Shown here one piece after another: positions 2,687 through 37,559 of a DNA stretch of 64,000 nt. The DNA is from an uncultured Bacilli bacterium. Its GTDB lineage: Bacteria; Bacillota_I; Bacilli_A; RF39; UBA660. A program made the translations under genes and the position numbers. The stretch's first letter is position 1. The number at the start of each line of letters is the position of its first letter. The notes beneath the pieces were generated by a model, which saw only the letters and a list, made by a program, of their open reading frames with translations, was not told the DNA's origin and searched no databases. Location of the stretch: the NCBI GenBank assembly GCA_944363715.1, contig CALVUX010000004.1, forward strand, positions 5,140 to 69,139, read 5' to 3'.

Positions 2687-2707
2687 ATATTAGTGAGGGA
2701 GTTTGAG

Positions 2708-4300
2708 ATGAGAAAAATTGAGATATTAGATTGCACTTTAAGAGATGGTGGATATGTTAATGATAATGAGTTTGGTTATGATAATATTAAACGATTAATA
2801 AAGTATTTGGAAGAGGCTAAAATCGAATTGATAGAATGTGGTTATTTAATGGATACTAAAGAAGAGTATTCTATTGATAGAACTGAATATCGAAAGATGG
2901 AAGAGCTAGAAGAACAAAATTTAATCGATGATACTGGGAAAAACCAATATACGTTAATGTTATTAGGGGAAAAATACAAAATTGAAAATTTACCATTAAG
3001 TAGTAATAGCAATAATATATTAAGAATGTCTTTTCATAAGAAAAGCTTACCTAAAGCAATTGAATATGCTAAAGAAATTAGGAAAAAAGGGTATCGTTTG
3101 TTTTTACAACCTACAGTTATATTAGGATATAATGAAGAAGAAATTAAAGAAATGATTCGAGTTTGTAATGAAGAACTTGATTTAGAAGGACTAGCTATTG
3201 TAGATACTTTTGGACAAATGACCCCTCAAGATGTTATTTATTTATCAAAGTTATTTGATTCTAATTTAAAGCCTGAAACTAAATTAGCTTTTCATGTTCA
3301 TAATAATCTACAGATGGCTTTTGCAAATGCTCTTGCTTTTATAGAAAGTACTTCTGAAGAAAGAAATATAGTTATTGATAGTTCTATTTATGGAATGGGA
3401 AGAGGAGCAGGTAATTTGCCTACAGAATTGATTGCAAATTATCTAAATGAAAAAGAAGGAAAAGAATATTTATTATCGCCATTATTAGAAGCTTCAGATA
3501 ATATTTTAGAAAAAATAAAAAATGAAAATTCTTGGGGCTATTCATTACCATATTATTTATCTGCTATTTATGCTTGTCATCCATCATATATTTTGTATTT
3601 ATTAAATAAGAAAATGCTTAATAGTAGTGATATCCATAAAGTAGTTCAGATGATTAGTGAACAAAAGAAAACAGAATATGATGCTGCTTATATTGAAGAA
3701 TTATATCAAATCTATAATGACCATACTTATTCTGATGAGAGCTCTTATAAAAAATTATCTAATTTTGTTGATGGAAAAGAAGTTCTTTTGATCGGCCCTG
3801 GTAAGAGTATTATAACTTATCAAGAGCAGTTAGATAATTATATTAATAATTCTGATTGCTTTGTTATTACTATTAATAATCCTAATTTACATAAACATAA
3901 TGCTGTATTTTATAGTAATAGGAAAAGATATCAAGAAACTTATGATACCTTGAATTCTAATGATATTAAAATAATTACTTCTAATATTAGTTGTGAAGAT
4001 AAAGATAATACTCTTATTTTTGATTATAGAAATTCCTTATCTAAGCTTGATGGAGTTTCCGATTCAGCTTTATTAGTTTGTTTAAATATTTTAAGTCATA
4101 CCAATGTTAAAAGGGTTCTTTTAGCAGGCTTTGATGGCTTTACTTCTTGTATGGAAGAAAACTTTTATCAAACTGATATTGCCTATTTACTTGATAAAAA
4201 TTATATTGATAATTTAAATTCTACTATGGAAAGAAATATAAAGAAATATCAAGAGAAGATGTTGATTAAAACATTAACTCCATCTAGAAATATTAGTTAG
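2708..4300 (+). CDS. Fusion protein: N-terminal HMGL-like (pyruvate/2-oxoacid) aldolase TIM barrel plus C-terminal DUF115 / MAF_flag10 (MptE-like) domain
   Basis: ATG at 2708 follows RBS GAGGGAG; the ORF-track GTG at 2693 is less likely. Motifs DCTLRDGG and FHVHNNLQMAFANALAF (HxH metal site) mark the HMGL family. The C-terminal half has VLLIGPGKSI...LLAGFDGF, resembling DUF115. Confidence 0.6.
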   Translation: MRKIEILDCTLRDGGYVNDNEFGYDNIKRLIKYLEEAKIELIECGYLMDTKEEYSIDRTEYRKMEELEEQNLIDDTGKNQYTLMLLGEKYKIENLPLSSNSNNILRMSFHKKSLPKAIEYAKEIRKKGYRLFLQPTVILGYNEEEIKEMIRVCNEELDLEGLAIVDTFGQMTPQDVIYLSKLFDSNLKPETKLAFHVHNNLQMAFANALAFIESTSEERNIVIDSSIYGMGRGAGNLPTELIANYLNEKEGKEYLLSPLLEASDNILEKIKNENSWGYSLPYYLSAIYACHPSYILYLLNKKMLNSSDIHKVVQMISEQKKTEYDAAYIEELYQIYNDHTYSDESSYKKLSNFVDGKEVLLIGPGKSIITYQEQLDNYINNSDCFVITINNPNLHKHNAVFYSNRKRYQETYDTLNSNDIKIITSNISCEDKDNTLIFDYRNSLSKLDGVSDSALLVCLNILSHTNVKRVLLAGFDGFTSCMEENFYQTDIAYLLDKNYIDNLNSTMERNIKKYQEKMLIKTLTPSRNIS

Positions 4301-4314
4301 AAAGAAGGTAAAAT

Positions 4315-5064
4315 ATGAAAGTAGTTGCAGTTATTCCAGCACGTTATAATTCATCGCGTTTTAAAGGTAAGCCTTTAGAATTAATTAATGATGAACCAAT
4401 GATAGCATGGGTTTATGGACAAGTAAAACAGGTTAAAGGACTTGATGATGTTTATGTTGCAACAGATGACGATAGAATTGAAAAGGTTTGTAAAGAGAAA
4501 AATATTAAAGTTATATTAACAAAAAATACGCATTCTACTAGTACAGAAAGAGTACAAGAAGTTTCAGAAACTGTTAAGGCAGATTTATATCTTGTTATTA
4601 ATGGAGATGAACCTTTAATTAATCCTAAAATGATTGAGAAGATAATTCCTGAATCTATTCCAGACAACAGTAAAGTTTATGTTGCTAATTTAATGAGCAA
4701 AATAAAGAATCCTGTTGAAGTTGTTGATTTTACAAATATTAAAGTTGTATTTGATAAATTGTCTTATGCTATGTTCTTTTCAAGAAGTCCTATTCCTTAT
4801 CCGAAGGGAAGTATGGAATACGAATATTATAAACATGTAGGAGTATTAATTTATAATAAAAAAGCTTTAGATTTTTTTGCTAGTACTGAAAAAGGCCCTT
4901 ATGAGACTGTAGAAGATGTAAATGAAATTCGTTTTCTTGAAAACGGAAAGAAAATAAAGATGATTGAAGTTGAAAGCGAAAGTTTATCTGTTGATACGCC
5001 TAAGGATTTAGAACATATTCGTGATATTGTAAAAGAAAAACATTTATCATGTTATCGTTTTTGA
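4315..5064 (+). CDS. kdsB: KdsB-type cytidylyltransferase (3-deoxy-manno-octulosonate cytidylyltransferase family; CMP-ulosonic acid synthetase)
   Basis: MKVVAVIPARYNSSRFKGKPL..., STSTERVQEV and VINGDEPLINP closely parallel E. coli KdsB (IPARYASTRLPGKPL, SGTERLAEV, VQGDEPMI). The symbol denotes the family; the substrate is unproven. Confidence 0.7.
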   Translation: MKVVAVIPARYNSSRFKGKPLELINDEPMIAWVYGQVKQVKGLDDVYVATDDDRIEKVCKEKNIKVILTKNTHSTSTERVQEVSETVKADLYLVINGDEPLINPKMIEKIIPESIPDNSKVYVANLMSKIKNPVEVVDFTNIKVVFDKLSYAMFFSRSPIPYPKGSMEYEYYKHVGVLIYNKKALDFFASTEKGPYETVEDVNEIRFLENGKKIKMIEVESESLSVDTPKDLEHIRDIVKEKHLSCYRF

Positions 5065-5096
5065 ATGTATAGTTTCTTAAAGGGAGGTGTTTACAA

Positions 5097-7862
5097 GTGA
5101 TTGTACCTATTATTTTTGAGAGTGAAGAATATATTAAAGAAAAACCAGCTTATTTATGGGTCTTTTATAAATTTGCTCGTTTTTCTTTAGATAGCAATAG
5201 TCCGATTATTGCTACTGAAGAATACTTTAAAAAGCCTTCTTATTATAAGGAATGTAAACATTCTGCTACGATTGTAATGGATTATTATGGTATTAATGAT
5301 GATTCTTACGATAGCTTAAAAAAATATGTTATTACAGATGAAGAAAAAAGAAGTATTTTGGAGCAGTTTCCTAATAATGTTGATGCATGGATTCATTTAC
5401 TTAAAGAAAGAGATGAAAAATTGGAGGAAATATTAGAAAAAGCTATTAATTATCTTGAATCTAAATATGAAAAAGTGGATGCATTCATGGTATGGACTTA
5501 TTTACCTAGTATTGATTATATTGCTAAAAAACACAAAGTAGTTTTGATAAATCAAGAGGCTAGTGCAATTAGGACGCCATTTTATAATCGTTTGTTAAAT
5601 TATTTTCAGTTTCAAAATAAATATGATACAAGTAATTTGAAAGAGCAGTATTCATTATTTTGCGAATCAGAAAATGTATTATGTTTAAGTAGAAAAGAAC
5701 TTTTCGCTCTTTTAGCAGATAAACAAAATATACATTATTTGAATGAAATAAATTCTGATCCCCTTTATGAGATTGGTTACGGCTTGGGAGTTGCTACTGA
5801 TTGTTTTGCAAAGGTATATTCTAAATGGAATCAAGATGATGTATTGAAAGCGATTAGTCATTTAACTTCTCCTAATAAAATATGTATTCGTCCTCATCCT
5901 AAAGAGCCTATTGACCTTTCAACATGGGGATTTGTTAAAGATGATTCCCCAACATCGTTTGATTGGATTTTAAAATGTAGACGTATTGTTGCAGATTTGT
6001 CAAATGTTTCTTTTGAAGCTGCTCTGATAGGAAGAACCGTTATTTCTCTTTCTGCATGCATGCCTTCTTCTTTTGGAGAAGAAAGTTCTCTAGATTATTT
6101 AGAAGAAGAAGTAATGAGTGTAAAGAAATTAAATTTTCTACTCTTTGCATGGTTTACACCAGAAGAATTAACACAAGATGTTGAATATGTTAGATGGAGA
6201 TTAACTAATCCTCATCCTATAGAAATATATAAAAGAAATCTTGAATACATTTTAAAATCTTTTGATATGAATTATCAAGATCTTATTACTTTAGAAGTAA
6301 AAGATAGATTAGACTATATTTTAAGAAGAAGACAAATTGATAAAGAAATAGTTTCTGATAATAAAGATAAAAGTTTAAATAAAAAATGTGATAATACTAT
6401 AGAAGGAATGTTAAGGCAAATGAAAGATATAAATAGTTATAAAATGACTTCATATGATTATAGAAAACTTATTGTAGAATTAAATAAGAAAATTAATGAG
6501 TTATATAGTAGTAATGAGTTGCTTAAAAATGAAAATAAATGTTTATTGGATACGAAAAAGTTTTATCAAGATGAGTTAAATAAGGTGCTTAATAGTTCAA
6601 GTTGGAAATTAACTAGTCCACTTAGAAAATTAAAGTCTATAGGAAAAAAAGAAGTAATTGAAAAGAAGAATGATGTGCAAGAAAAAGAAGAACCTAGGGT
6701 TGTTACTCATTCATATAAAGAATATGCACCATATACAAGTACTTATCAAGATAATATTGATTTTTCTAAATATAATACTGATATTAAAACTTTGGCTTTT
6801 TATTTACCACAATATCATACCTTTAAAGAAAATGATTTATGGTGGGGAAGAGGTTTTACAGAGTGGGTTAATACTAAGAAAGCTAAACCTAGATTTGATG
6901 GGCATTATCAACCTAGAATACCACACAAAGATTTTGGCTACTATACATTAGATAATGTTGAAACGATAAAAAAACAAGTTAAGTTAGCAAAAGAACATAA
7001 AATATATGGTTTTGTTTTCTATTATTATTGGTTTTCTGGTAAAAGATTAATGGAAAAACCTATAGATTTGTTTTTTAAAGATAAGAGTATTGATTTTCCT
7101 TTTTGCTTTTGTTGGGCTAATGAGAATTGGACTAGGACTTGGGATGGACTTGAAAATGATGTACTAATTAAACAAGATTATAAAAAAGATGATTATAGAA
7201 AATTTATAAAAGATATAAAAAAATATCTTTTAGATGATCGTTATATTAAAATAGATGGAAAGCCAGTGATAATGATTTACAATCCTAGTGCTATTCCTAA
7301 TTTTAAGGAGTTAGTAACTAAGTGGAGGCAATATGCAATTGATGAGGGTATTGGTGAACTTTATATTATGGATAAATGTGAACTAGCTGATACAAATTAT
7401 AAATATACTGAATATACTGATGCTTCTTTCGATTTTCCACCACATGGTGTAGGCCATCCTGCTACAAAATTAACAGGCTTAAGTTCACCTAAAATATTTA
7501 ACTATAAGAAAATAGTTGAAGACATTGACCATTTATATAAAGAACATTTTCCACTTAAACCATTTTATTATTCTATAACAATGGGATGGGATAATTCTGC
7601 TAGAAGAAAAGATGGCTATACTATTTATTATAACTATTCATTAGAAAGCTTTTATAAGTGGTTAAAAATAATAATAAGAGAAACTAGAAGAAGAAATGAT
7701 GAAGAGCATAGATTTATTTTTGTTAATGCTTGGAATGAGTGGGCTGAAGGTACTTATTTAGAGCCTGATGAAAAATATGGCTATGCCAATATTAATACTT
7801 TATCAAAAGCAATTTGTGATTTGCCTTTAGATAAGGAAGATGCAAAAAAAAATAAAATGTGA
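5097..7862 (+). CDS. 921-aa multidomain glycosyltransferase: unassigned N-terminal domain with an HP motif, a central coiled-coil, and a C-terminal WbsX-family GT domain
   Basis: GTG start 9 nt after GGAGG. N-terminal domain of about 430 aa has ICIRPHPKEP followed by SNVSFEAALIGRTVISL. A heptad-rich segment at aa ~440-510 ends in SSSWKLTSPLRKL. The C-terminal FYLPQYHTFKENDLWWGRGFTEWVN...YYWFSGKRLMEKP...NAWNEWAEGTYLEPD matches Glyco_tran_WbsX. Confidence 0.65.
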   Translation: MIVPIIFESEEYIKEKPAYLWVFYKFARFSLDSNSPIIATEEYFKKPSYYKECKHSATIVMDYYGINDDSYDSLKKYVITDEEKRSILEQFPNNVDAWIHLLKERDEKLEEILEKAINYLESKYEKVDAFMVWTYLPSIDYIAKKHKVVLINQEASAIRTPFYNRLLNYFQFQNKYDTSNLKEQYSLFCESENVLCLSRKELFALLADKQNIHYLNEINSDPLYEIGYGLGVATDCFAKVYSKWNQDDVLKAISHLTSPNKICIRPHPKEPIDLSTWGFVKDDSPTSFDWILKCRRIVADLSNVSFEAALIGRTVISLSACMPSSFGEESSLDYLEEEVMSVKKLNFLLFAWFTPEELTQDVEYVRWRLTNPHPIEIYKRNLEYILKSFDMNYQDLITLEVKDRLDYILRRRQIDKEIVSDNKDKSLNKKCDNTIEGMLRQMKDINSYKMTSYDYRKLIVELNKKINELYSSNELLKNENKCLLDTKKFYQDELNKVLNSSSWKLTSPLRKLKSIGKKEVIEKKNDVQEKEEPRVVTHSYKEYAPYTSTYQDNIDFSKYNTDIKTLAFYLPQYHTFKENDLWWGRGFTEWVNTKKAKPRFDGHYQPRIPHKDFGYYTLDNVETIKKQVKLAKEHKIYGFVFYYYWFSGKRLMEKPIDLFFKDKSIDFPFCFCWANENWTRTWDGLENDVLIKQDYKKDDYRKFIKDIKKYLLDDRYIKIDGKPVIMIYNPSAIPNFKELVTKWRQYAIDEGIGELYIMDKCELADTNYKYTEYTDASFDFPPHGVGHPATKLTGLSSPKIFNYKKIVEDIDHLYKEHFPLKPFYYSITMGWDNSARRKDGYTIYYNYSLESFYKWLKIIIRETRRRNDEEHRFIFVNAWNEWAEGTYLEPDEKYGYANINTLSKAICDLPLDKEDAKKNKM

Positions 7863-7892
7863 TATACTTATGAACATAAGGAGGAGTACTTG

Positions 7893-8636
7893 ATGGCTAA
7901 AAAAGATAGTGAATTTGCTATAAGAGTAAAAAATGTAACAAAGTATTTTAAATTATACTATGACAAACCGAATACATTAAAAGAAAGACTTGTTAATATT
8001 ACTCGTAATAAAGCTGAAAATAGAATAGTTTTAGAAAATATTAATCTTGATATAAAAAAAGGAGAAACCGTTGCTTTAGTTGGTACTAATGGTAGCGGTA
8101 AATCTACACTTTTGAAATTAATGACTAAGATTATTTATCCTAATAAAGGAACAATAGTTACTAATGGAAAATTAACATCTCTTTTGGAATTAGGAGCTGG
8201 TTTTCATCCTGATTTTACTGGTAGAGAAAATATTTATTTTAATGCAGCTATTTTTGGATTGTCAAAATCAGAAATAGATAAAAGATTAGATGATATTATT
8301 TCATTTTCTGAATTAGATAATTTTATTGATAGTCCAGTTCGTACTTATTCTTCAGGAATGTATATGAGGCTTGCTTTTTCCATTGCTATTAATGTTGATG
8401 CTGATATTTTATTAGTAGATGAGATTTTGGCTGTAGGAGATCAACATTTTCAAGAAAAGTGTTTTGCTAAATTAAATGAACTTAAAAAAAGTGATAAAAC
8501 AATTGTTATTGTTACGCATGATTTAAATGCAGTAAAAAAGTTATGTACTAGAGCAGTATGGATTTATGGAGGTAAAATTAGAATGGATGATGAGCCAAAT
8601 AAAGTAGTAGAGGAATACTTAAAAATATGTCAGTAG
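7893..8636 (+). CDS. Polysaccharide/teichoic-acid ABC exporter ATP-binding protein (TagH / Wzt / RgpD-like, no C-terminal CBM)
   Basis: Walker A GTNGSGKST, signature YSSGMYMRLAF, Walker B ILLVDEILAVGD, H-loop VTHD. ATG at 7893 lies 8 nt after AGGAGG. Confidence 0.85.
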   Translation: MAKKDSEFAIRVKNVTKYFKLYYDKPNTLKERLVNITRNKAENRIVLENINLDIKKGETVALVGTNGSGKSTLLKLMTKIIYPNKGTIVTNGKLTSLLELGAGFHPDFTGRENIYFNAAIFGLSKSEIDKRLDDIISFSELDNFIDSPVRTYSSGMYMRLAFSIAINVDADILLVDEILAVGDQHFQEKCFAKLNELKKSDKTIVIVTHDLNAVKKLCTRAVWIYGGKIRMDDEPNKVVEEYLKICQ

Positions 8637-8645
8637 GTGATTACA

Positions 8646-9422
8646 ATGAAGATTTTTAAAGATTTATATCAATATCGTGAACTTTTAAAGACAAACGTTA
8701 GAAAAGAAATACGAGGTAAATATAAAGGATCTTTTCTAGGTGTTCTATGGTCTTTTATTAATCCATTATTAATGGTTTTAGTATATGCAATTGTTTTTCC
8801 TTTAATTTTAAAAAGTTCAGAGCCTAATTATGTAATATTTCTTATAGTTGGAATTATTCCTTGGAATTTTTTTACAACTGTAATTAATCAAGGAACTACT
8901 ACTATTGTTAATAATGGTAATATAATAAAGAAAGTTTATTTTCCTAGAGAAATATTACCAATATCAGTAGTTACTAGTGGTTTAATTAATTTCTTTATTT
9001 CCTGTATTATCATTTTAATATTTATTATTTTTGGTGGGATGAGTTTATCACCTGTTATGTTACTCTTACCATTAATTGCTATTATTCAATATATTTTATC
9101 CTTAGGCATTATATTTATCTTAAGTGCTATAAATGTATATGTTAGAGATATTGAATATATAGTTAATTTTATTGTTATGATGCTATTTTATGCTACACCT
9201 ATCTTATACTCTAGTGAATTGTTTGCTAATACAGCTTTTGAATGGATTATGTATGTTAATCCTATGGCTCATATTATCAATGCATATAGGGATATATTCT
9301 ATTATCAAGTATTACCAGATTTTTCTATACTTGCTATAGTAGGAATTATTAGTTTTGCAATACTTATTATAGGTTACCAAATATTTAAAAAATTAGAAAA
9401 AAGATTTGCTGAGGAATTATAA
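8646..9422 (+). CDS. ABC-2 type polysaccharide exporter permease (TagG / Wzm / RgpC-like)
   Basis: Six predicted TM segments. The conserved N-terminal motif YRELLKTNVRKEIRGKYKGSFLGVLWSFINP is typical of Wzm/TagG. Adjacent to the ATPase. Confidence 0.85.
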   Translation: MKIFKDLYQYRELLKTNVRKEIRGKYKGSFLGVLWSFINPLLMVLVYAIVFPLILKSSEPNYVIFLIVGIIPWNFFTTVINQGTTTIVNNGNIIKKVYFPREILPISVVTSGLINFFISCIIILIFIIFGGMSLSPVMLLLPLIAIIQYILSLGIIFILSAINVYVRDIEYIVNFIVMMLFYATPILYSSELFANTAFEWIMYVNPMAHIINAYRDIFYYQVLPDFSILAIVGIISFAILIIGYQIFKKLEKRFAEEL

Positions 9423-9423
9423 G

Positions 9424-10299
9424 ATGAAAAAAAATGAAAGAGTGGAAGCAGTATTTATAATTTTACATTATAAGAATATAAACGATACAATAGAATGTAT
9501 AAATTCAATTAGAACCCTTGAAGATAATAACTATAAAATTGTTGTTGTAGATAATAATAGTGGCATAAAAGAAGATGATATAAAGTTAAAGAGTTTAATA
9601 GATGATCTAATAATTTTAGAAGAGAATATTGGCTTTGCTAAGGGGAATAATAAAGGAATAGATTTAGCAAGAGAAAAATATCATCCTGATTTTATGATAG
9701 TTATTAATAATGATACATTATTAACTCAAAAAGATTTATTGAAAAGAGTACATAATATTTATCAAAAGCATCCATTTGATGCTTTAGGATTTAAAATTCT
9801 AACTAATGAAGGAGATTCAGTAAATCCTTTCCCAGTTTATGATACTTTAGATAAAGTTAATAAGGCTATTGATAGAGAAGAGATGCTGTTAAAAATATAT
9901 AATAGTAAATTTAAAAGATTTTTACTGAGAAGTTATTCTAAATTTAAAAGATTTATAAAAAAGCCTAAACATTTAGAAAATGCTAATTGTTTTATGGAAG
10001 ATGTAGCCCTTCATGGTTGTGCAATTATATTTTCTAAAAGATATTATGAAAAGTATAAAGATTGTTTTTATTCTCATACATTTCTTTATCATGAAGAAGA
10101 GTTTTTAGATTATCGTAGGAGAAAAGATAATTTAAAATTTATTTATGATCCTGATATAGAAATATTTCATAAAGAAGGGTCTTCTCTTAATTATGATTAT
10201 AATGATGATTTATATAGAAAATTAATTTTTAGAGAAAAAAATATTTTAAAGTCATTAAAACTATTAAAAGAAGTTATGATAAAAAATAAAAAAATATAA
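9424..10299 (+). CDS. GT2-family glycosyltransferase (rhamnosyltransferase-like)
   Basis: N-terminal VEAVFIILHYKN...VVVDNNS...GFAKGNNKGI...INNDT is a GT-A/GT2 signature. ATG at 9424 is preferred over the TTG at 9406. Confidence 0.75.
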   Translation: MKKNERVEAVFIILHYKNINDTIECINSIRTLEDNNYKIVVVDNNSGIKEDDIKLKSLIDDLIILEENIGFAKGNNKGIDLAREKYHPDFMIVINNDTLLTQKDLLKRVHNIYQKHPFDALGFKILTNEGDSVNPFPVYDTLDKVNKAIDREEMLLKIYNSKFKRFLLRSYSKFKRFIKKPKHLENANCFMEDVALHGCAIIFSKRYYEKYKDCFYSHTFLYHEEEFLDYRRRKDNLKFIYDPDIEIFHKEGSSLNYDYNDDLYRKLIFREKNILKSLKLLKEVMIKNKKI

Positions 10300-10309
10300 G
10301 GAGTACAAT

Positions 10310-12244
10310 ATGAAAAAAGAAGGAATATCAATAATAATACCATGTTACAATACAGAACAATATATAGAAAAATGCTTAGATTCTATTTTGAAGCAAAATT
10401 TAGAAAAGTTTGAGATCATTTTGGTTGATGATTGTTCTACTGATAAAACTGTTTCTATTATTAAGCGTTATATGAAAAAATGTCCTTATATAAAATTAAT
10501 TAAAAATAAGGAAAATCATGGTGCTGGTTATAATAGAAATATTGCTTTAAAAGAAGCCAAATATGATTTAATATCTTTTATTGATTCAGATGATTATTTA
10601 GAAGATAATTTTTATGAAGAATTATATAAAGCTATTACTAAAGAGAAAGCAGATGTTGCAGTATGTGATATTTTTATAAAGTTTGATTCATCTTTTGAAA
10701 ATCAAACAGATGTAAGAGCTGTTGAGTGTGAAGGAAAAGTAACAAAAGAAAATATTTTAAATCAAGGTCATGCAGCTTCACCATGCAATAAATTATTTAG
10801 AAAGGAGTTATTAGAAAAATTTCCATTTCCAACTGGGATAATGAACGAAGATGTAGCAACTGTATTAGCCACTATAATAAATGCGAAAAAAATAGCTTAT
10901 ACTGGTGATACATATTATAATTATATTCAAAGACAAAAATCTATACAGAATGATACTTTAAGTTTTAAACGATTTGATATTTTTAAAGCACTTGATATTT
11001 TAGAGAGCCGTATTAATAAAGTAAAAGGATATAAAAAATATTTTGACATAATTATATATCAACAAGTTATTATGTTTTATTTATATATTCCACCTAAAGA
11101 AGATAAATTTATCAAACGTTATAAGTTTTTAAAAGAATTATACAAGAAAAGTGCTAAATATAAAATTAGGCAAAATCATTATTTTTGGAATTTTTTAGAA
11201 ACACAAGGAACTAAACATAAATATTATTATAAACTCTACTTAAAATTTAATGATAGTGGTTTGTGCTTTTTAGCAAATATGATGATATCTTTTTATAAAT
11301 TTTATTCTAGAAATCTAGTTAAAACAGTTATTCCTTCTAAGATAACTTTGGACACTCTTATTGATTTAGCAGAAAAACAAAGTAATAAAAAAGAAAGTGG
11401 TAAAACTATTTCTGTAGTAATACCAAACTATAATTATGCTGATTTTATGTATCAGAGAGTTTATAGTATTTTATATCAAACTGAAAAAATAGATGAGTTA
11501 ATAATATTAGATGATTGTTCTAAAGATAATAGTAGAGAAGTTATAGATGAACTTGTGGATAAACTAAAACAATATATTAATATTAAAAAGATTTATAATG
11601 ATGTTAATAGCGGTTCAGCTTTTAAACAATGGGAGAAAGGTTTTGAAAATGCTACAGGTGACTATGTTTGGATTGCAGAAGCAGATGATTTTTGCCAAAA
11701 ACAATTTTTGAAATCAGTTTTAAAACCTATTAAAGAGGATGATTCTATAGTTATATCATATACAGATACAGCATTTATAGATAAATTTGGAAAGATAATT
11801 CTTCCTTCTATAAAACCAGAAATAGATATATTAAAATCAGGTCATTGGGATCATGATTTTATTGAAAATGGTGAAGATGAGATAAAAAAATACGCTTATT
11901 TAAATTGTACTATTGCTAATGTTTCTTCTGTTGTCTTTAAAAATAATAACTATAAAAATTATTTTGCTAAATCTGGCAAATATAAACAAGCTGGAGATTG
12001 GCTATTCTATGTTAATGTTATGAAAGAGGGTAAAATTGCTTTTATTAATAAACCTTATAATTTTTATCGTGTACATGGTAATAATGTTACTAGTTTAAAT
12101 AAGAAACAAGCTCAATTGAATGAAATCAAAATGGTTCATAAAGAAATAGGTAAGATGTATAAATTAACAAAGAAACAAAAAAATGAAATAGAAAAAAGGT
12201 ATAAGTTTTTAATAAGAGTATGGCAATTGGAGGGTGATAAATAA
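10310..12244 (+). CDS. Bifunctional glycosyltransferase with two GT2 domains
   Basis: Two GT2 signatures are present: ISIIIPCYNTEQYIEKCLDSILKQ...VDDCSTD...DSDD, and ISVVIPNYNYADFMYQRVYSILYQ...LDDCSKDNS...AEADD. Confidence 0.8.
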   Translation: MKKEGISIIIPCYNTEQYIEKCLDSILKQNLEKFEIILVDDCSTDKTVSIIKRYMKKCPYIKLIKNKENHGAGYNRNIALKEAKYDLISFIDSDDYLEDNFYEELYKAITKEKADVAVCDIFIKFDSSFENQTDVRAVECEGKVTKENILNQGHAASPCNKLFRKELLEKFPFPTGIMNEDVATVLATIINAKKIAYTGDTYYNYIQRQKSIQNDTLSFKRFDIFKALDILESRINKVKGYKKYFDIIIYQQVIMFYLYIPPKEDKFIKRYKFLKELYKKSAKYKIRQNHYFWNFLETQGTKHKYYYKLYLKFNDSGLCFLANMMISFYKFYSRNLVKTVIPSKITLDTLIDLAEKQSNKKESGKTISVVIPNYNYADFMYQRVYSILYQTEKIDELIILDDCSKDNSREVIDELVDKLKQYINIKKIYNDVNSGSAFKQWEKGFENATGDYVWIAEADDFCQKQFLKSVLKPIKEDDSIVISYTDTAFIDKFGKIILPSIKPEIDILKSGHWDHDFIENGEDEIKKYAYLNCTIANVSSVVFKNNNYKNYFAKSGKYKQAGDWLFYVNVMKEGKIAFINKPYNFYRVHGNNVTSLNKKQAQLNEIKMVHKEIGKMYKLTKKQKNEIEKRYKFLIRVWQLEGDK

Positions 12245-12245
12245 A

Positions 12246-13787
12246 ATGCTTTCTTTTATAAAAAAAAATAGAGTTTTAATAATTTTTACTATCTTCTTTG
12301 CAATGCTTTTATTCCAACATCAATTTTTATGGCTATATCATGATGATTATGGATATGCTTCTCTTAGTTATGCAGTAGATATTGGAAATATAGGTCATGA
12401 ATATGGGATATTAGATATTTTTAATTTCTTAGGTCAACATTATTTACAATGGGGTGGCCGAATAACTTGTTTCTTTATTGAATGTTTATTACTTAGATTT
12501 GGATTACCAATTTATAGAATTGCACAAAGTATAGTGATACTTGCAATATTTTATTTAATATATAAACTGGTTTCAAAAAGAGCTAATATTAGCGATTATA
12601 AGGTTGCTCTATTAACCATTTCAATGTATGGTTTTCTCGAGATAATGATAGTGCGTGATGGTATTTTTTGGATAACTGGTGCTGTTAATTATTTATTCCC
12701 ACTTTTAACTTTTCTTTTGTTAGTTTATTTTGTAGAAACAAATAAAGATAAAGGCAAATTATTTTTTGTTCTTCAAATACTTCTTGCATTTTTTGCAGGC
12801 TTTTCTCATGAACAAACTTCTGCTATGACAATTGCCTTTCTTGGATTTATAATTATTAAGGAAAAGATTTTAACAAAAAAATTTAATATAAAAAAAATAG
12901 TTACTTTTATTTTTGCACTAGTTGGTTTTCTTTTATTATTATTTTGTCCAGGTAGTTATAATAGATTGGGTTCTACTTCTACATTTGAAGGCATGAATAT
13001 TATTGAAAAGTTAGACTTTAGTTTTACAAATTTAATAAATGGTTTTTTTAGTGAATATAATGGTGCTTTTTTATTTATATTTTTTCTGATGATTTTGTAT
13101 ATATCAATCGAAAATATAAAAAATAATAAAAATAATAATATTATTATAAAAATTGCATCTTTTTCTAATATAGTTATTGTATTAATAAGTTTCTTAAAAC
13201 GCTCTTCAAATTATTTTATATTTATGCAAGGTTTGTTTAGTAATTCTATATACCATGTGTTAATATTATTTGTATTTATAATTCAATTATGTTTAATTGT
13301 ATACTCCTTGATAATTTTTATAGGTAAAAAAGATTTATTATTAATTAATTTATTTATTAGCAGTCTAGCAAGCATATCTGTGATGTTAATTTCTTCGTAT
13401 TATCCTATGCGTGCTTCACTTGGTTTTATAATAATTAATTATATAATTTTGCTTGTAATTTTTTGCAAATTTTTTGAAAAAAATAAAAGATTAAGATATT
13501 TTAATTATTTTTTAGTTGCAATTTGCATTTTTGCTTTTATTAATTATGGTACAATAACTAAAGGATATTATAACAATAATTTTGTTAATAAATATAATGA
13601 CAATATTTTACAACAAAGTAGTCTAAAAATTAAACAGGGGAAAAATATTAAAAAAATAGTTTTAAAAAAATTACCTGATATTGCATATTCAGGTGATCAA
13701 CCTTATATAGATGGCTTTGAATATATAGAGAAATGGATTAAAAATTATTATGAGCTTCCAGAAAGGATAAAAATAGTTTATGAGTAG
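12246..13787 (+). CDS. Polytopic integral membrane protein, probable glycan polymerase or GT-C-type transferase (function unassigned)
   Basis: More than 10 hydrophobic segments. Embedded in the glycan locus. ATG at 12246 lies 11 nt after GGAGGG. Confidence 0.45.
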   Translation: MLSFIKKNRVLIIFTIFFAMLLFQHQFLWLYHDDYGYASLSYAVDIGNIGHEYGILDIFNFLGQHYLQWGGRITCFFIECLLLRFGLPIYRIAQSIVILAIFYLIYKLVSKRANISDYKVALLTISMYGFLEIMIVRDGIFWITGAVNYLFPLLTFLLLVYFVETNKDKGKLFFVLQILLAFFAGFSHEQTSAMTIAFLGFIIIKEKILTKKFNIKKIVTFIFALVGFLLLLFCPGSYNRLGSTSTFEGMNIIEKLDFSFTNLINGFFSEYNGAFLFIFFLMILYISIENIKNNKNNNIIIKIASFSNIVIVLISFLKRSSNYFIFMQGLFSNSIYHVLILFVFIIQLCLIVYSLIIFIGKKDLLLINLFISSLASISVMLISSYYPMRASLGFIIINYIILLVIFCKFFEKNKRLRYFNYFLVAICIFAFINYGTITKGYYNNNFVNKYNDNILQQSSLKIKQGKNIKKIVLKKLPDIAYSGDQPYIDGFEYIEKWIKNYYELPERIKIVYE

Positions 13788-15294
13788 AATAATAAAGTTT
13801 TTTTATGTTTTTTTTGCTATTATCTTTTTATATTTGCTTATAAATATTCCATTTAGAGAAATATCAACTCTTTATGATATTAATTCATTAATCTTTGTAC
13901 CAATAAGTATAATAATAATCTTTATTTGGTATTTTATATATAAAGTAGTTAATAAGAAATTTAATAAACTTACAAATAAAAAGAAAATTATTTTGATATG
14001 TTCTACATTTATTTTTATTATAATTATAGAAATTTTAATTATTCTTTTTTTAGATGTTCCTTTAGGGTGGGATTTTGAAGTTGTATATCAACAAGCGAAA
14101 AGTTATGTTTTAAACCATGCACATTTAAATAGTGGTGGTGTACCACATTATTTTCAATATTTTCCAAATAATATTCCAATTTTTATTGTGTTAGTTATTG
14201 TTTTTAAATTTTTTCAAATATTTGGTATGAATGACTTTTTATTAGTTGGTGAAATATTTAATGCTATTTTGATTTTGTTGACTATTATTTTTACTTATTT
14301 ATTTATAAAAAAAAGTTATGGAGAAGCAAAAGCATATTTTTCATTGTTAATATCTTTGTTTTTTATTCCACTATTCTTATATATTCCAGTATTTTATTCT
14401 GATACATTTTCAATATTATTCGTTCCATTAATCCTTTATACATCTGCATTTTTTAATTCTTCTAATAAAAAATATAGAATTATTTCATATTTGTGTTTTG
14501 GAATATTTTCTTTCATAGGGTGTAAAATGAAAATGACTGTAATTTTTATTCCTTTGGCCATTATCTTTGCTCAAATGTTGAAAGCTAATTATAAATGTTT
14601 TTTGATTTTATTATCATCATTAGTTCTTTCTTTCTTAGTTTTGGGTAGTTTTTATAATTATTTTGTTCTTGAAAAAGATATTTTTTATGCAAAATATGAT
14701 AATTATGGAGCAATCCCTTATACTCATTGGGTAATGATGGGAATTGAGGATGGAGAGGTTAAAGATCATAATTCTTATGGCGGATATAATGGTGATGATT
14801 ATGAGAAAACAGAAAGTTTTAAAACTGGCAGAGATAGTATGAAATATCATATAAAAGAAATAAAGAGAAGAATTAATAAATGGGGTTTTATTGGTTATGC
14901 TAATTATCTTACAAATAAAGCTGTTAATGCATGGGGAGACGGAAATTATTATGCTGCTATAAAACTGAATTGGCAAAACAAATATAATACAAATAATTTT
15001 CAAAAAATTATTTCTGGAAGTGATAATAATCATTATATGATATATTTTAATTCTAGTGTTTCATTTGCGTTTTTGATTTTATTAGTAATGTCATTTTTAT
15101 GGGCATTAATTAAAAAAGATAATAATTTGTTAGTGATTCAATTATCCATTTCTATGATTTTTGTATTTTTACTATTATGGGAAAATCGTTCTAGATATTT
15201 ATATAATTATATTCCAATTTTTAATATTGTAATTGTCTATTATATAGATAAGCTTAAGTTATTAGGATTAAGATGGAAGAAATATCGAGGGTAG
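13780..15294 (+). CDS. GT-C fold membrane glycosyltransferase (GT39/ArnT/PMT_2-like), uses a polyprenyl-phosphate sugar
   Basis: Multi-TM N-terminal region with an extracytoplasmic loop (GWDFEVVYQQA...) and a large soluble loop. Next to a GtrB-like gene. Confidence 0.5.
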   Translation: MSRIIKFFYVFFAIIFLYLLINIPFREISTLYDINSLIFVPISIIIIFIWYFIYKVVNKKFNKLTNKKKIILICSTFIFIIIIEILIILFLDVPLGWDFEVVYQQAKSYVLNHAHLNSGGVPHYFQYFPNNIPIFIVLVIVFKFFQIFGMNDFLLVGEIFNAILILLTIIFTYLFIKKSYGEAKAYFSLLISLFFIPLFLYIPVFYSDTFSILFVPLILYTSAFFNSSNKKYRIISYLCFGIFSFIGCKMKMTVIFIPLAIIFAQMLKANYKCFLILLSSLVLSFLVLGSFYNYFVLEKDIFYAKYDNYGAIPYTHWVMMGIEDGEVKDHNSYGGYNGDDYEKTESFKTGRDSMKYHIKEIKRRINKWGFIGYANYLTNKAVNAWGDGNYYAAIKLNWQNKYNTNNFQKIISGSDNNHYMIYFNSSVSFAFLILLVMSFLWALIKKDNNLLVIQLSISMIFVFLLLWENRSRYLYNYIPIFNIVIVYYIDKLKLLGLRWKKYRG

Positions 15295-15474
15295 AAAAGA
15301 AATAATTTTATTAATTATAATAAGAATTGTAGCTTTTTATTATTTTTTCCATTATTTTATCTATTTTTATATTAATTGAAAAAAGTGTTAAATATTTACA
15401 ATGATTTAAGTTAATGGTAAACTAGTTTTAGTAATATTAAAATATTATGAAACTAGTATGAGGAAGTGTTATTT

Positions 15475-16443
15475 ATGAAAAGAAAACAAGTTAGTCAAGA
15501 TATTTTATATGTTGTAATACCATGTTACAATGAAGAAGAAGTTTTAGAAGAAACTACAAGGCAGTTAAAAGAGAAAATGAAGGATTTAATCACAACAAAG
15601 AAAATAAGCGATAAAAGTAGAGTTATGTATGTTAATGATGGCAGCAAGGATAAAACTTGGAATATCATTGAAAAAATCCATAGAAAAGAAAAACTATTTA
15701 CTGGTATATCCTTATCCAGAAATAGAGGACATCAAAATGCATTATTAGCAGGTTTAATGACTGCGAAAAATTATGCTGATGTAGTTATTAGTATGGATGC
15801 TGATTTACAGGATGATATTAATGCTATGGATGAAATGTTAGATAAATATTATCAAGGTAATGATATTGTCTATGGAGTTAGAAGTTCCAGAAAAAAAGAT
15901 ACTTGGTTTAAAAGAACTACTGCTGAAGGTTTCTATAAATTTATGAATAAAATGGGAGTAGATGTTGTTTATAATCATGCTGATTATAGGTTGACTAGTA
16001 AAAGGGTATTAGACTATTTAGAAAATTACAAGGAGGTAAATTTATTCTTGCGTGGTATTTTTCCTTTAATTGGTTTTTCATCAGACATTGTTTACTATGA
16101 GAGAAACGAAAGATTTGCAGGTGAGAGTAAATATCCATTAAAAAAGATGCTTTCTTTTGCATGGGATGGTATTACTTCTTTTTCAATTCGTCCAATAAAA
16201 CTTGTTTTAAATTTAGGAATCTTTATTTTTGCTATTAGTATATTGATTTTAATATATTGTTTAATAGTTAAATTATTTGGTTATACAGTTGATGGTTGGA
16301 CATTTATTATGTGTTCTATCTGGATTGTAGCAGGGCTTGAAATGTTATCTTTAGGAATAATAGGAGAATATGTTGGTAAAATTTACAGTGAGACCAAAGC
16401 AAGACCTAGGTATATAATATCTAGAAATCTAAATGAAGAGTAA
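15475..16443 (+). CDS. GtrB/CsbB-like GT2 polyprenyl-phosphate glycosyltransferase with two C-terminal TM helices
   Basis: ILYVVIPCYNEEEVL...YVNDGSKDKT...SRNRGHQNALLAGL...DADLQDD, plus two C-terminal TM segments and GEYVGKIYSE, match the GtrB family. Confidence 0.85.
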   Translation: MKRKQVSQDILYVVIPCYNEEEVLEETTRQLKEKMKDLITTKKISDKSRVMYVNDGSKDKTWNIIEKIHRKEKLFTGISLSRNRGHQNALLAGLMTAKNYADVVISMDADLQDDINAMDEMLDKYYQGNDIVYGVRSSRKKDTWFKRTTAEGFYKFMNKMGVDVVYNHADYRLTSKRVLDYLENYKEVNLFLRGIFPLIGFSSDIVYYERNERFAGESKYPLKKMLSFAWDGITSFSIRPIKLVLNLGIFIFAISILILIYCLIVKLFGYTVDGWTFIMCSIWIVAGLEMLSLGIIGEYVGKIYSETKARPRYIISRNLNEE

Positions 16444-16448
16444 TTGCT

Positions 16449-16480
16449 AAAAATTGTCAAATTCTTGGCAATTTTTTTTA
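16449..16480 (+). terminator. Rho-independent terminator after the GtrB-like gene
   Basis: 10-bp stem AAATTGTCAA / TTGGCAATTT, 4-nt loop, followed by a T-run. Confidence 0.8.
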
Positions 16481-16539
16481 ATTCCTTTTTAATTATTCTT
16501 TTATATGATATGATAAAAGTAATTAGAAAGGTTTAGACT

Positions 16540-19534: not shown

Positions 19535-19535
19535 T

Positions 19536-37549: not shown

Positions 37550-37559
37550 GAGTGTAATT

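Follow-up and report, generated by a model that had tools for sequence, protein, structure and literature searches.

A putative CMP-ulosonic acid module with a GT99-family transferase in a wall-polysaccharide locus of an uncultured member of the Bacilli

The window, the whole stretch of 64,000 nucleotides that was analysed, derives from a low-GC Gram-positive (monoderm) gut bacterium, an uncultured member of the Bacilli. A sequence-only reading had described five consecutive same-strand genes, and all five open reading frames are present and intact (Table 1). Compared with an 89%-identical metagenomic relative, all five showed dN/dS values of 0.04-0.13. Thus, these genes are under purifying selection and are not chance open reading frames. 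The last two encode the Wzt/TagH-like ATPase and the Wzm/TagG-like permease named in that reading, and both assignments were borne out by Pfam and NCBIfam. Neither database placed a C-terminal carbohydrate-binding module (CBM) in the 248-aa ATPase. Further polysaccharide assembly genes follow, among them DUF6056 and PMT_2 membrane proteins that we read as GT-C-like. The matches to rmlA, rmlC and rmlD all exceed the model cut-offs; rmlB is not adjacent to them. The LCP protein on the opposite strand is likely the ligase that joins the polymer to the wall.

Table 1. Positions of the features within the window
Feature	Position	Strand	Basis
Five consecutive ORFs	2693/2708-4300, 4315-5064, 5097-7862, 7890-8636, 8637-9422	+	ORF listing
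Two-domain aldolase: DRE-TIM (HMGL-like) metal-dependent pyruvate aldolase and Rossmann-like C-domain	2708..4300	+	Pfam, NCBIfam, PDB profile search, hhalign
KdsB/KpsU-family CMP-ulosonic acid synthetase (cytidylyltransferase)	4315..5064	+	Pfam, NCBIfam, PDB profile search
GT99 domain of the 921-aa protein (aa 1-415): retaining transferase of beta-Kdo type for an ulosonic acid	5097..6341	+	Pfam, WbbB comparison, Foldseek
Single long helix, aa 452-498, heptad-rich, putative coiled-coil spacer	6450..6590	+	a/d-periodicity score, AlphaFold
Conserved SxSWKxTxPLRK motif after the coiled coil, aa 500-513	6594..6635	+	Alignment
WbsX (PF14307) domain, aa 566-901 of the 921-aa protein	6792..7799	+	Pfam 1e-117
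Wzt/TagH-like ABC ATPase, 248 aa, nucleotide-binding domain only	7890..8636	+	Pfam, NCBIfam
Wzm/TagG-like ABC-2 permease	8637..9422	+	Pfam, NCBIfam
Remaining polysaccharide assembly genes	9406..18662	+	Domain matches
GT2 (297 aa); double GT2 (644 aa)	within 9406..18662	+	Domain matches
DUF6056 membrane protein; PMT_2 membrane protein	within 9406..18662	+	Domain matches
PgfS/GtrB-like polyprenyl-phosphate GT2; O-antigen-ligase-like membrane protein; rhamnosyltransferase-like GT2	within 9406..18662	+	
rmlA, rmlC, rmlD (dTDP-L-rhamnose synthesis)	18659..21001	+	TIGR01207 460, TIGR01221 199, TIGR01214 279
LCP (LytR-CpsA-Psr) glycopolymer-to-peptidoglycan transferase with PASTA domain	32142..34217	-	

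The aldolase reading frame as listed starts at GTG 2693; ATG 2708 fits the homologues, whose consensus MRxIxILDCTLRDGG matches a start there. The N-terminal part comprises about aa 1-330, and the C-terminal domain comprises aa 335-535 of the reading frame. The protein had been called an HMGL-type aldolase fused to DUF115. The first half of this description stands, with the HMGL-like family covering aa 8-254 (Pfam, E 1.3e-20). The top NCBIfam matches are 4-hydroxy-2-oxovalerate aldolases, and a PDB profile search returned 3dxi, a 'putative aldolase' (5e-42), and DmpG, 1nvm (2e-23). Residues R17, D18, H201 and H203, which are invariant in 26 homologues, are predicted to bind the metal and pyruvate. 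The fusion to DUF115 holds only as remote homology, because the C-domain has no DUF115/PF01973 match in Pfam, even at E<=1, but aligned in hhalign with true PF01973 members encoded at related loci (95.1% probability, E 3e-8). Its AlphaFold model has a pLDDT of 89, and the best fold match is SteA (TM 0.46-0.50). In other DRE-TIM enzymes, C-terminal domains bind the end product. By analogy, and speculatively, the MptE/DUF115-like domain may bind a nucleotide or CMP-sugar in a regulatory role. The two-domain aldolase is present in at least 572 species.

The second gene product matches CTP_transf_3 (Pfam, 1e-46) and contains both IPARYNSSRFKGKPL and NGDEPLI. It was expected to be of the KdsB type and not to follow the NeuA pattern, and the comparisons agree: it reaches 267 with the NCBIfam KdsB subfamily model NF009905, whose cut-off is 255, and 13 KdsB/KpsU chains in the PDB match at 1e-48 to 4e-27 whereas NeuA-type chains reach only 1e-5. 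The match to E. coli KpsU (1gq9, E 1e-48) extends over nearly the full length. The synthetase meets neither NCBIfam equivalog model, TIGR00466 (149.6 against a cut-off of 155.2) or NF003948. Additionally, N96 and L178 occupy the positions of KdsB Q98 and Y185, the residues that hold Kdo O5. With E. coli KdsB, turnover of 5-deoxy-Kdo was undetectable, and 5-epi-Kdo required ten-fold more substrate and 24 h.

The 921-aa protein starts at GTG 5097, with a ribosome-binding site, GGGAGGTG, 7 nt upstream. Its N-terminal domain (aa 1-415) is a homologue of the GT99 beta-Kdo transferases, as had been suspected. PF21912 (Glyco_transf_99) spans aa 16-174 above the Pfam gathering cut-off (4.5e-18), and the WbbB GT99 domain matches by sequence over aa 16-385 (E 2e-13). 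In the fold comparison that had been suggested, WbbB was the closest match of the AlphaFold model (pLDDT about 90; Foldseek E 3e-20, TM 0.78-0.82), and KpsC (GT107) and KrkA ranked next. The RPHP motif lies at aa 265-268 (nt 5889-5900) and is followed by SNVSFEAALIGR. Residues E154, R159, D235 and H267-P268 correspond to E158, R163, D232 and H265-P266 of WbbB, and the WbbB-essential residues are conserved in an alignment of 17 relatives. The Glu, the Arg, the Asp nucleophile and the HP-motif residues were shown to be essential in WbbB (PMC9587256). In WbbB, Arg163 and Glu158 contact Kdo O4 and O8, and the Gln of the QxxxD motif binds the Kdo carboxylate. This Gln has been described as invariant and important, and a Q228A mutant was severely impaired; the domain studied here has GxxxD, not QxxxD.

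A heptad segment of about 70 aa ending in SSSWKLTSPLRKL had been reported behind this domain. The segment itself was recovered, but it is nearer 47-60 residues long: our own a/d-periodicity score is highest at aa 444-485, and AlphaFold, modelling a monomer (pLDDT 60-74), predicts an unbroken helix at aa 452-498 (47 residues), followed by a short one at aa 506-514 that covers part of SSSWKLTSPLRKL and overlaps the second half of the SxSWKxTxPLRK motif. If fully helical, the longer helix would measure ~7 nm. The motif is also C-terminal in two 584-aa relatives that have only the GT99 domain. The C-terminus had been assigned to a WbsX-family GT. The family is right, but the glycosyltransferase reading is not upheld: the domain models as a GH99-like barrel, with GH99 endo-mannosidases as its Foldseek matches (E about 3e-5, TM about 0.5), and has no demonstrated polymerase activity. 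In another locus, WbsX is encoded as a separate gene.

The neighbourhoods of related genes bear on the origin of the sugar. As the sequence-only reading had noted, kdsA, kdsD and kdsC are not visible, and none was found in the 64-kb window. The non-canonical aldolase route that it inferred gains independent support from gene order. Three sister loci (67-68% identity), and two distant ones (35% and 31%), group GT99, aldolase and synthetase genes, usually with a HAD phosphatase. In the sister loci the phosphatase gene sits between the synthetase and GT99 genes and belongs to the KdsC/YrbI family (TIGR01670, 135 bits; cut-off 107). No phosphatase gene was found in the window or in the closest relative locus, so a step through a phosphorylated intermediate would need an enzyme from elsewhere. 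In many of 31 KdsB-like genome loci, the synthetase and aldolase genes recur together with a HAD_2 or KdsC gene as a core cassette. This cassette adjoins GT52/polysialyltransferase-like, PF01973 (DUF115) or GT99 genes, all of which are CMP-ulosonate transferase families; in related loci from Clostridia, its neighbours are polysialyltransferase-like enzymes.

We propose that this region specifies a rhamnose-containing wall polysaccharide whose assembly depends on an ABC transporter, and that the locus has its own CMP-activated 3-deoxy-2-ulosonic acid module, whose chemistry is inferred. In our model, the aldolase would join pyruvate and an aldose, most likely terminally phosphorylated, and the 4-hydroxy-2-oxo acid so formed would be a 3-deoxy-2-ulosonate (phosphate). 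The terminal phosphate would be removed by a phosphatase. In sister loci a KdsC-family enzyme is encoded in cis; in the window this activity would be supplied in trans or not be needed. The synthetase, placed in the KdsB family by its matches but with an inferred substrate, would then form the CMP-beta-ulosonate.

The second part of our model concerns transfer and export. Judging from homology and catalytic residues, the GT99 domain would add the sugar to the growing polymer at the cytoplasmic face by a WbbB-type double displacement, in which D235 would be the nucleophile and E154 and H267 would act as base and acid, respectively. A rhamnose residue is the most plausible acceptor; we counted in favour of the proposal both the rhamnose supply by rmlA, rmlC and rmlD and the fact that Rha O3 is the natural acceptor of WbbB. 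Because a helix of ~47 residues separates the transferase from a second polysaccharide-related domain of the same protein, addition would most likely occur at the non-reducing end and stop elongation, which would provide capping and some length control. Wzm/Wzt would move the polymer out, and the LCP enzyme would ligate it to the wall. There is no wall chemistry for this organism or its relatives, and we consider the proposal as a whole, in which an ulosonate is made, CMP-activated and transferred by GT99 as a cap, to be only slightly favoured by the evidence.

The computational checks suggested alongside the sequence-only reading all favoured it. Capping and ruler functions remain an inference from architecture: no CBM that could read a cap is present on the ATPase, the spacer is short, and the C-terminal domain does not correspond to any known polymerase. 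It is possible, if rather doubtful, that synthesis and transfer of the ulosonic acid proceed as in our model and yet the residue does not terminate the chain but belongs to the repeat unit, a side chain or the linkage region, with the helix serving only for oligomerisation or as a scaffold. Kdo has non-terminal precedents in K13-type capsules and in the KpsS/KpsC poly-Kdo linker. The structural relatives KpsC and KrkA build internal or linker Kdo, and the Clostridia cassettes suggest ulosonic-acid polymers. Additionally, a Wzt-CBM is present in all characterised chain-terminated ABC-dependent systems (PMC11231755). On the other hand, a coiled-coil protein that bears its terminator distally is the hallmark of such chain termination (PMC11231755), and the order of transferase, coiled coil and second polysaccharide-related domain is that of the terminators WbbB and ORF6-O7. 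The 584-aa relatives consist of GT99 and coiled coil only, like stand-alone terminators, and WbbB, a terminator, is by far the closest solved relative of the domain.

The identity of the sugar is a separate question. We regard it as unlikely that the sugar is authentic Kdo, made by the aldolase as a PEP-independent KdsA replacement from arabinose-5-phosphate and pyruvate and added by GT99 as a terminal beta-Kdo, as in WbbB. The KdsB subfamily score, the top PDB matches (all CMP-Kdo synthetases), the KdsC-family phosphatase of sister loci and the conserved equivalents of Arg163 and Glu158 are consistent with Kdo. However, the synthetase has other residues at both O5-binding positions and the carboxylate-binding Gln of WbbB is a Gly here, so the sugar of our proposal is probably Kdo-like, not plain Kdo, as far as these residues can tell. 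The unmet equivalog models also speak against Kdo, as does the lack of an arabinose-5-phosphate isomerase in the 64-kb window. By sugar-site signature, at least four groups of aldolase-linked synthetases can be told apart, with a single locus close to canonical. GT99 relatives are paired with synthetases of several different signatures; thus, specificity may not be readable from those positions, or else the transferases may be promiscuous. That aldolase and cytidylyltransferase do not feed GT99 at all, and instead activate, for example, a small non-sugar 4-hydroxy-2-oxo acid or are relics, seems very improbable: 33 of 80 aldolase-family genome loci have no CTP_transf_3 partner, with ThDP and CDP-sugar enzymes adjoining, so the family is not restricted to one pathway, and no member has a known substrate (3dxi is an unannotated structural-genomics entry), but the three genes occur together repeatedly across 31-89% identity, with dN/dS about 0.1, the neighbouring transferases are always of the CMP-ulosonate type, and sister loci carry the KdsC-family phosphatase.

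The proposed pathway resembles the canonical CMP-Kdo pathway (KdsD, KdsA, KdsC, KdsB/KpsU) in that a C3 unit and an aldose phosphate would give an ulosonate phosphate that is dephosphorylated and CMP-activated, and the synthetase resembles E. coli KpsU. It differs in using a DRE-TIM metal-dependent pyruvate aldolase with an MptE-like domain in place of the PEP-dependent KdsA, in having no isomerase and in the replaced O5-binding residues. This proposed aldolase route to a Kdo-like sugar is previously undescribed. The earlier statement that Kdo-type sugars are not accepted in Firmicutes walls needs qualification. A genomic island of Bacillus coahuilensis m2-6 has been reported to carry kdsA/B/C/D and kpsC (PMC4744853), so that this Firmicute also combines CMP-Kdo-type sugar genes with a retaining beta-Kdo-type transferase; it was horizontally acquired, uses the canonical KdsA pathway and GT107 KpsC, and has no GT99, coiled-coil fusion or aldolase route. 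Kdn teichulosonic acids of Streptomyces (PMC7831098) and other Actinobacteria likewise place a 3-deoxy-2-ulosonic acid in a Gram-positive wall glycopolymer, but in another phylum, with a nonulosonic acid as part of the repeat unit and no known GT99/aldolase cassette.

Among chain terminators, WbdD, ORF7-O4 (a GT137 alpha-Kdo terminator) and ORF6-O7 also place the terminator distally on a coiled coil, some being fused to GTs (PMC11231755); these systems are Gram-negative, all have a Wzt-CBM and use kinase/methyltransferase and GT137 families. The nearest comparison is WbbB of Raoultella terrigena / Klebsiella pneumoniae O12, which joins a GT99 beta-Kdo terminator, a coiled-coil ruler and a GT102/GT103 polymerase. 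GT99 identity is only about 20%, and our locus departs from WbbB in GxxxD for QxxxD, a spacer of about 47 residues, a WbsX/GH99-like domain in place of GT102/GT103, a Wzt without CBM, a monoderm host whose polymer would go to peptidoglycan via an LCP enzyme, and a donor that is probably not Kdo and would come from an aldolase instead of KdsA. Like WbbB, it has an N-terminal GT99 fold that keeps the base Glu, the nucleophilic Asp, the Arg and the HP motif. In both cases a helical spacer and then another polysaccharide-related domain follow on one polypeptide, and the locus serves a rhamnose-containing polymer that depends on an ABC transporter, with a KdsB-family enzyme for the CMP-donor. A Gram-positive locus thus holds a relative of a Gram-negative O-antigen-capping enzyme inside a rhamnose wall-polysaccharide cluster.

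The module proposed by the sequence-only reading holds five ORFs, and all of them were found in the window, which has a G+C content of about 27% and whose genes from 389 to 23218 lie almost all on the forward strand. The ATG chosen for the aldolase, at 2708, agrees with the N-termini of its homologues, and every motif that had been singled out (IPARYNSSRFKGKPL, NGDEPLI, RPHP, SNVSFEAALIGR and SSSWKLTSPLRKL) is present. Compared with L088, a metagenomic relative that is 89% identical, dN/dS was 0.04-0.13 for all five genes. On sequence evidence, the five ORFs are functional genes and not chance ORFs. The nearest relatives of the window proteins came from gut metagenome contigs, 'Candidatus Onthousia' (Bacilli) and an uncultured Bacilli MAG.

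Positions of the module and of neighbouring features in the window
Feature	Position	Strand	Source
765-aa GH25 protein	389-2686	+	
Aldolase	2693/2708-4300	+	ORF listing
Cytidylyltransferase	4315-5064	+	ORF listing
921-aa protein	5097-7862	+	ORF listing
Post-helix motif	6594-6635		
ABC ATPase	7890-8636	+	ORF listing
ABC permease	8637-9422	+	ORF listing
Second ABC pair	21013-23218	+	
691-aa LCP protein	32142-34217	-	
Surface-protein gene run	34396-39276	+	
tRNA-Leu	39293-39379		

Residues 1-415 of the 921-aa protein qualify as a putative GT99 member by sequence, modelled fold and catalytic residues. Pfam places PF21912 (Glyco_transf_99) on residues 16-174 with 66.4 bits (gathering score 27), and the phmmer match to the beta-Kdo terminator WbbB (5fa0/8csd, E 2e-13) pairs residues 16-385 with 16-378, the whole catalytic domain. 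A PDB sequence search with the 921-aa protein returned WbbB only (5fa0, 5fa1, 8csb-f). A structural comparison of this domain with GT99 and GT107 had been suggested, and in an AlphaFold model built from 18 input sequences (pLDDT about 90 over residues 1-415) the domain models as a WbbB-type GT99 fold. Foldseek ranks 1-14 were WbbB (E 3e-20 to 1e-17; target-normalised TM 0.78-0.82), followed by the other retaining Kdo transferases KpsC (GT107) and KrkA.

In WbbB, the covalent nucleophile is Asp232, the acceptor is activated by Glu158 as base, and His265 in the HP motif serves as acid; Kdo is bound at O4 by Arg163, at O8 by Glu158 and Asn179, and at the carboxylate by Gln228, the 'invariant' Gln of a QxxxD motif (PMC9587256). 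The window protein has D235, E154, H267-P268 and R159 as the equivalents of Asp232, Glu158, the His265 HP motif and Arg163. The Glu and His were invariant in all 17 GT99-containing rows of our alignment A4, and the nucleophile was Asp in 16 rows and Asn in one. The position of the QxxxD Gln, in a loop whose alignment is less certain, is occupied by Gly in the window protein and 14 relatives and by Thr in two distant relatives. Of the 156 closest representatives of the family, 76 have GxxxD and 30 have QxxxD, and the WbbB-like proteins of about 1200 aa fall in the QxxxD group. An exhaustive HMMER search of 1.84 billion representatives found only 470 clusters of this family at 50% identity, 119 of them at E<=1e-30. 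With the window protein, the retaining Kdo transferases would come to include a GxxxD subgroup, which challenges the 'invariant' QxxxD motif.

The cytidylyltransferase (CYTIDYLYLTRANSFERASE) is KdsB-type rather than NeuA-type, as its motifs had been taken to indicate. In the PDB search, 13 KdsB/KpsU chains outranked the first NeuA-type chain (1e-5), and the best solved relative was E. coli KpsU, the capsule CMP-Kdo synthetase (1gq9, E 1e-48). The enzyme passed the NCBIfam cut-offs of the KdsB subfamily models NF009905 (267 > 255) and NF003952 (252.6 > 193). It missed NF003950 (223 < 234) and the KdsB equivalog models TIGR00466 (149.6 < 155.2) and NF003948 (156.7 < 281). A phosphonate-tailoring context for the enzyme was ruled out, since its family is CTP_transf_3/KdsB and a PEP mutase is absent.

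Modelling on the E. coli KdsB-CTP-2-deoxy-Kdo complex has the C5 hydroxyl of Kdo hydrogen-bonded by Q98 and Y185; E. coli KdsB had no detectable turnover of 5-deoxy-Kdo, and with 5-epi-Kdo it required ten-fold more substrate and 24 h (PMC12199768). At these positions the window enzyme has N96 and L178, and both PDB references have Q and Y. We compared six sugar-site positions in 33 synthetases that are linked to an aldolase in other loci; contacts are documented for Q98 and Y185 alone, and the other four are observed motif differences. The window signature, NHLNES, recurs in 12 loci, one a Bacteroides. QQYEIA was found in eight loci, NYEDHS in five and the near-canonical QHYEMG in one, with other signatures in the remainder; the two PDB references read QHYEQG. 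Because GT99 relatives are paired with synthetases of several signatures, the sugar cannot be named from these positions. Given N96 and L178 in the synthetase and GxxxD in the GT99 domain, we predict that it is more likely to be a relative of Kdo than Kdo itself.

The N-terminal 330 residues of the aldolase are a DRE-TIM barrel (PF00682 HMGL-like, 1.3e-20), in which the Arg-Asp pair (R17, D18) and the HxH metal ligands (H201, H203) were invariant in 26 homologues. In a PDB profile search, the nearest solved relative was 3dxi, an unannotated 'putative aldolase' from Bacteroides (5e-42), and the pyruvate aldolase DmpG (1nvm) matched at 2e-23; the best Claisen synthases reached no more than about 1e-9 to 1e-10. 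The domain meets the description of a putative DRE-TIM metallolyase of the pyruvate aldolase branch (DmpG/BphI-like). It falls short of a 4-hydroxy-2-oxovalerate aldolase proper, which would include the DmpG communication domain and a dehydrogenase partner: it missed the equivalogs TIGR03217 (75.9 < 286) and NF006049 (84.6 < 229), and no DmpF-like gene lies near it. The residue after RDGG is Tyr21, where DmpG has His.

The C-terminal 200 residues form a Rossmann-like alpha/beta domain in the AlphaFold model (pLDDT 89). This part had been described as a fused DUF115 domain. Pfam gave no match to PF01973/DUF115 in residues 320-535 at E<=1, the PDB profile search matched the N-terminal domain alone, and the only significant fold match by Foldseek against the PDB was a weak one, to SteA (TM 0.46-0.50), with Maf and CstII not among the matches. 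As these searches gave little, we aligned a profile of the domain (83 sequences) with PF01973-positive neighbours using hhalign, which gave a probability of 95.1% and E 3e-8 over 128 columns and paired GPGKS with GTGPSL and LAGFDG with LLGIDH. Thus, the DUF115 assignment survives as remote homology only, not as Pfam membership.

The order GT99, coiled-coil-type helix, WbsX also stands, but the helix is nearer to 47-60 residues than to the 70 originally estimated. AlphaFold predicts a single unbroken helix of 47 residues (452-498) that is followed, beyond a short helix (506-514) and a disordered linker, by a C-terminal barrel of moderate confidence, and the a/d-periodicity score is maximal at residues 444-485 (0.88, against a protein mean of 0.22). 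A helix of 47 residues is much shorter than those of described rulers. Pfam assigns PF14307 WbsX to residues 566-901 (E 1e-117), and by Foldseek the C-terminal domain resembles GH99 endo-mannosidases (TM about 0.5). The WbsX identity is thus supported; its reading as a glycosyltransferase is not, since the fold is glycoside-hydrolase-like and no polymerase activity has been demonstrated. The 248-aa ATPase has no C-terminal CBM in Pfam, which reports only ABC_tran on residues 48-179; a Wzt CBM that recognizes the cap is present in 'all terminated OPS examples' (PMC11231755). The predicted coiled coil is followed immediately by a motif, S-x-S/A-W-K-x-T-x-P-L/I-R, that is common to the 921-aa fusions and to the C-termini of 584-aa GT99-plus-coiled-coil proteins (P0007/P0008) at about 30% identity. 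This motif may be a membrane- or partner-docking element.

The strongest evidence for the predicted function is comparative genomics. The sister loci L001-L003, L089 and L090 (67-68% identity) have the same gene order as the window, with one extra gene between the synthetase and GT99 genes. In L001 this gene encodes a 157-aa HAD protein (TIGR01670 KdsC/YrbI, 135 against a cut-off of 107); the HAD phosphatase gene is missing in the window and in L088. At 35% identity, L093 has a two-domain aldolase, a KdsB-like synthetase, a small Hydrolase_3-type HAD and an ABC transporter beside GT99; its HAD resembles that of L001 and was not scored against TIGR01670. At 31% identity, L004 has a GT99-plus-coiled-coil protein only, together with aldolase, synthetase, HAD_2 phosphatase, ABC transporter and RgpF. 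In L091 (1115-4603, 62% identity) the GT99 (441 aa) and WbsX (472 aa) domains are separate, overlapping genes; the adjoining synthetase carries QQYEIA, not NHLNES. L092 has its GT99 gene in a spore-former locus with SpoIVA nearby, so GT99 hosts include Firmicutes.

A profile scan of one genome per species placed relatives of the aldolase in at least 572 species, mostly Lachnospiraceae, Oscillospirales and other Clostridia, and also in Bacillus, Paenibacillus, Bacteroidales, Treponema, Fusobacterium, proteobacteria, Gastranaerophilales and a Methanomassiliicoccaceae archaeon. Carriers of the cassette that are in culture include Clostridium leptum DSM 753, Proteocatella sphenisci and Eubacterium plexicaudatum ASF492. 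Of the 80 best aldolase loci, 31 encode a KdsB-like synthetase, at 40% identity or more, which almost always abuts the aldolase; a distant CTP_transf_3 is present in 16. In 15 of the 31 KdsB-like loci the gene right behind the aldolase encodes a HAD_2 or KdsC-type phosphatase, and across the 31 the adjoining transferases are GT52/polysialyltransferase-like, PF01973 (DUF115) or GT99, all CMP-ulosonic-acid-using families. The remaining 33 loci (within L008-L087) lack CTP_transf_3 and have ThDP and CDP-sugar enzymes instead. Many have a ThDP-dependent enzyme of about 603 aa near the two-domain aldolase, directly downstream of it in L072 (10001-13461); other neighbours are CDP-glucose 4,6-dehydratase or glucose-1-phosphate cytidylyltransferase. 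Such loci seem to encode a different sugar pathway, a second one that is likewise uncharacterized.

Two further groups of loci were observed. L006 (2557-6926) and L007 encode a GT99-WbsX relative that is 58% identical, and instead of the precursor cassette they have a single-domain HMGL aldolase of 356 aa and a distant CTP_transf_3 of 216 aa. As the cassette is replaced and identity to the window protein is only 50% in the GT99 domain compared with 76% in WbsX, these sequences suggest a switch of donor sugar. In the Clostridia/Lachnospiraceae loci L015, L023, L024, L063 and L070 (~1800-12900), an NHLNES synthetase occurs in a common order: ABC transporter, two polysialyltransferase/GT52-like genes, GT8, synthetase and aldolase, followed by a phosphatase in L015 and L070 and an LCP gene in L024 and L063. 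These loci may make ulosonic-acid-rich wall polymers.

Elsewhere in the window, rmlA, rmlC and rmlD were confirmed at equivalog level; rmlB does not adjoin them. A second ABC pair (DrrA-like ATPase and ABC-2 permease) directly follows rmlD. Directly upstream of the aldolase, the 765-aa protein carries long repeats of the choline-binding type and has a GH25 muramidase at its C-terminus; a GH25/choline-binding protein occupies the same position in L001 and L089. The window protein may act as an autolysin that is anchored on the product of this polysaccharide locus. The 691-aa protein combines LCP and PASTA domains with a phosphonate-type periplasmic-binding-protein-like region. The surface-protein run, which adjoins tRNA-Leu, encodes a dockerin/SH3 protein, a cadherin-like-domain protein and an NAGPA-type phosphodiester glycosidase.

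The simplest reading of the region is a self-contained CMP-ulosonate module. We propose that the pyruvate aldolase would form an ulosonate, which would be converted to CMP-ulosonate and feed a WbbB-type retaining transferase acting on a rhamnose-containing polymer; the acceptor of WbbB itself is Rha O3 (PMC9587256). Wzm/Wzt would export the polymer and side chains would be added afterwards; we read a PgfS-like GT2 and two large membrane proteins, DUF6056 and PMT_2, as a system that donates sugars from polyprenyl phosphate, with GT-C-type transferases. Ligation of the polymer to the wall would follow, catalysed by an LCP enzyme.

We think it probable that CMP-ulosonate is made and that the GT99 domain transfers its sugar to the polymer. 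Whether the transferred ulosonic acid is a chain-terminating cap with length control is close to an even call, and we lean slightly against it. Both judgements reflect the absence of a CBM on the ATPase, the short spacer and the uncharacterized partner domain. Our broadest hypothesis is a conjecture that may well prove wrong: the cassette of aldolase, synthetase and phosphatase would be an undescribed PEP-independent route to a family of non-Kdo 3-deoxy-2-ulosonic acids, widespread among gut Firmicutes and Bacteroidales and also present in some archaea. In the window organism, a GxxxD-type GT99 would add one such sugar to a wall rhamnan as its chain-terminating cap, and the MptE-like (DUF115-like) domain of the aldolase would serve as a CMP-sugar feedback sensor. 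This large, uncharacterized gut-bacterial cassette probably makes new acidic surface sugars, which would bear on phage receptors, immune recognition and glycan-based typing.

We know of no described mechanism by which Gram-positives terminate the chains of their ABC-dependent rhamnose wall polysaccharides, and a GT99 and coiled-coil protein in a rhamnose wall-polysaccharide locus is a concrete, testable candidate for a terminator. If this is true, it would be the first O-antigen-type terminator and length-control system in a monoderm wall polysaccharide. Our literature search, which was incomplete, found no description of GT99 enzymes in Gram-positives or of an aldolase-based ulosonate route. 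The earlier view that Kdo-type sugars are not accepted in Firmicutes walls has to be qualified by a Bacillus coahuilensis genomic island with canonical kdsA/B/C/D and kpsC (PMC4744853) and by the Kdn teichulosonic acids of Streptomyces walls (PMC7831098). The module parallels KdsA-KdsC-KdsB, with a pyruvate aldolase as the proposed condensing enzyme. Like the WbbB, WbdD and O4/O7 systems (PMC11231755), it has a transferase at one end of a helix and a second polysaccharide-related domain opposite; unlike those terminators, it has an ATPase without a CBM, a short spacer and an uncharacterized partner domain, WbsX. In sum, the transferase family and the assembly logic are known, whereas the envelope type, the divergent active-site motif and probably the precursor pathway are new.
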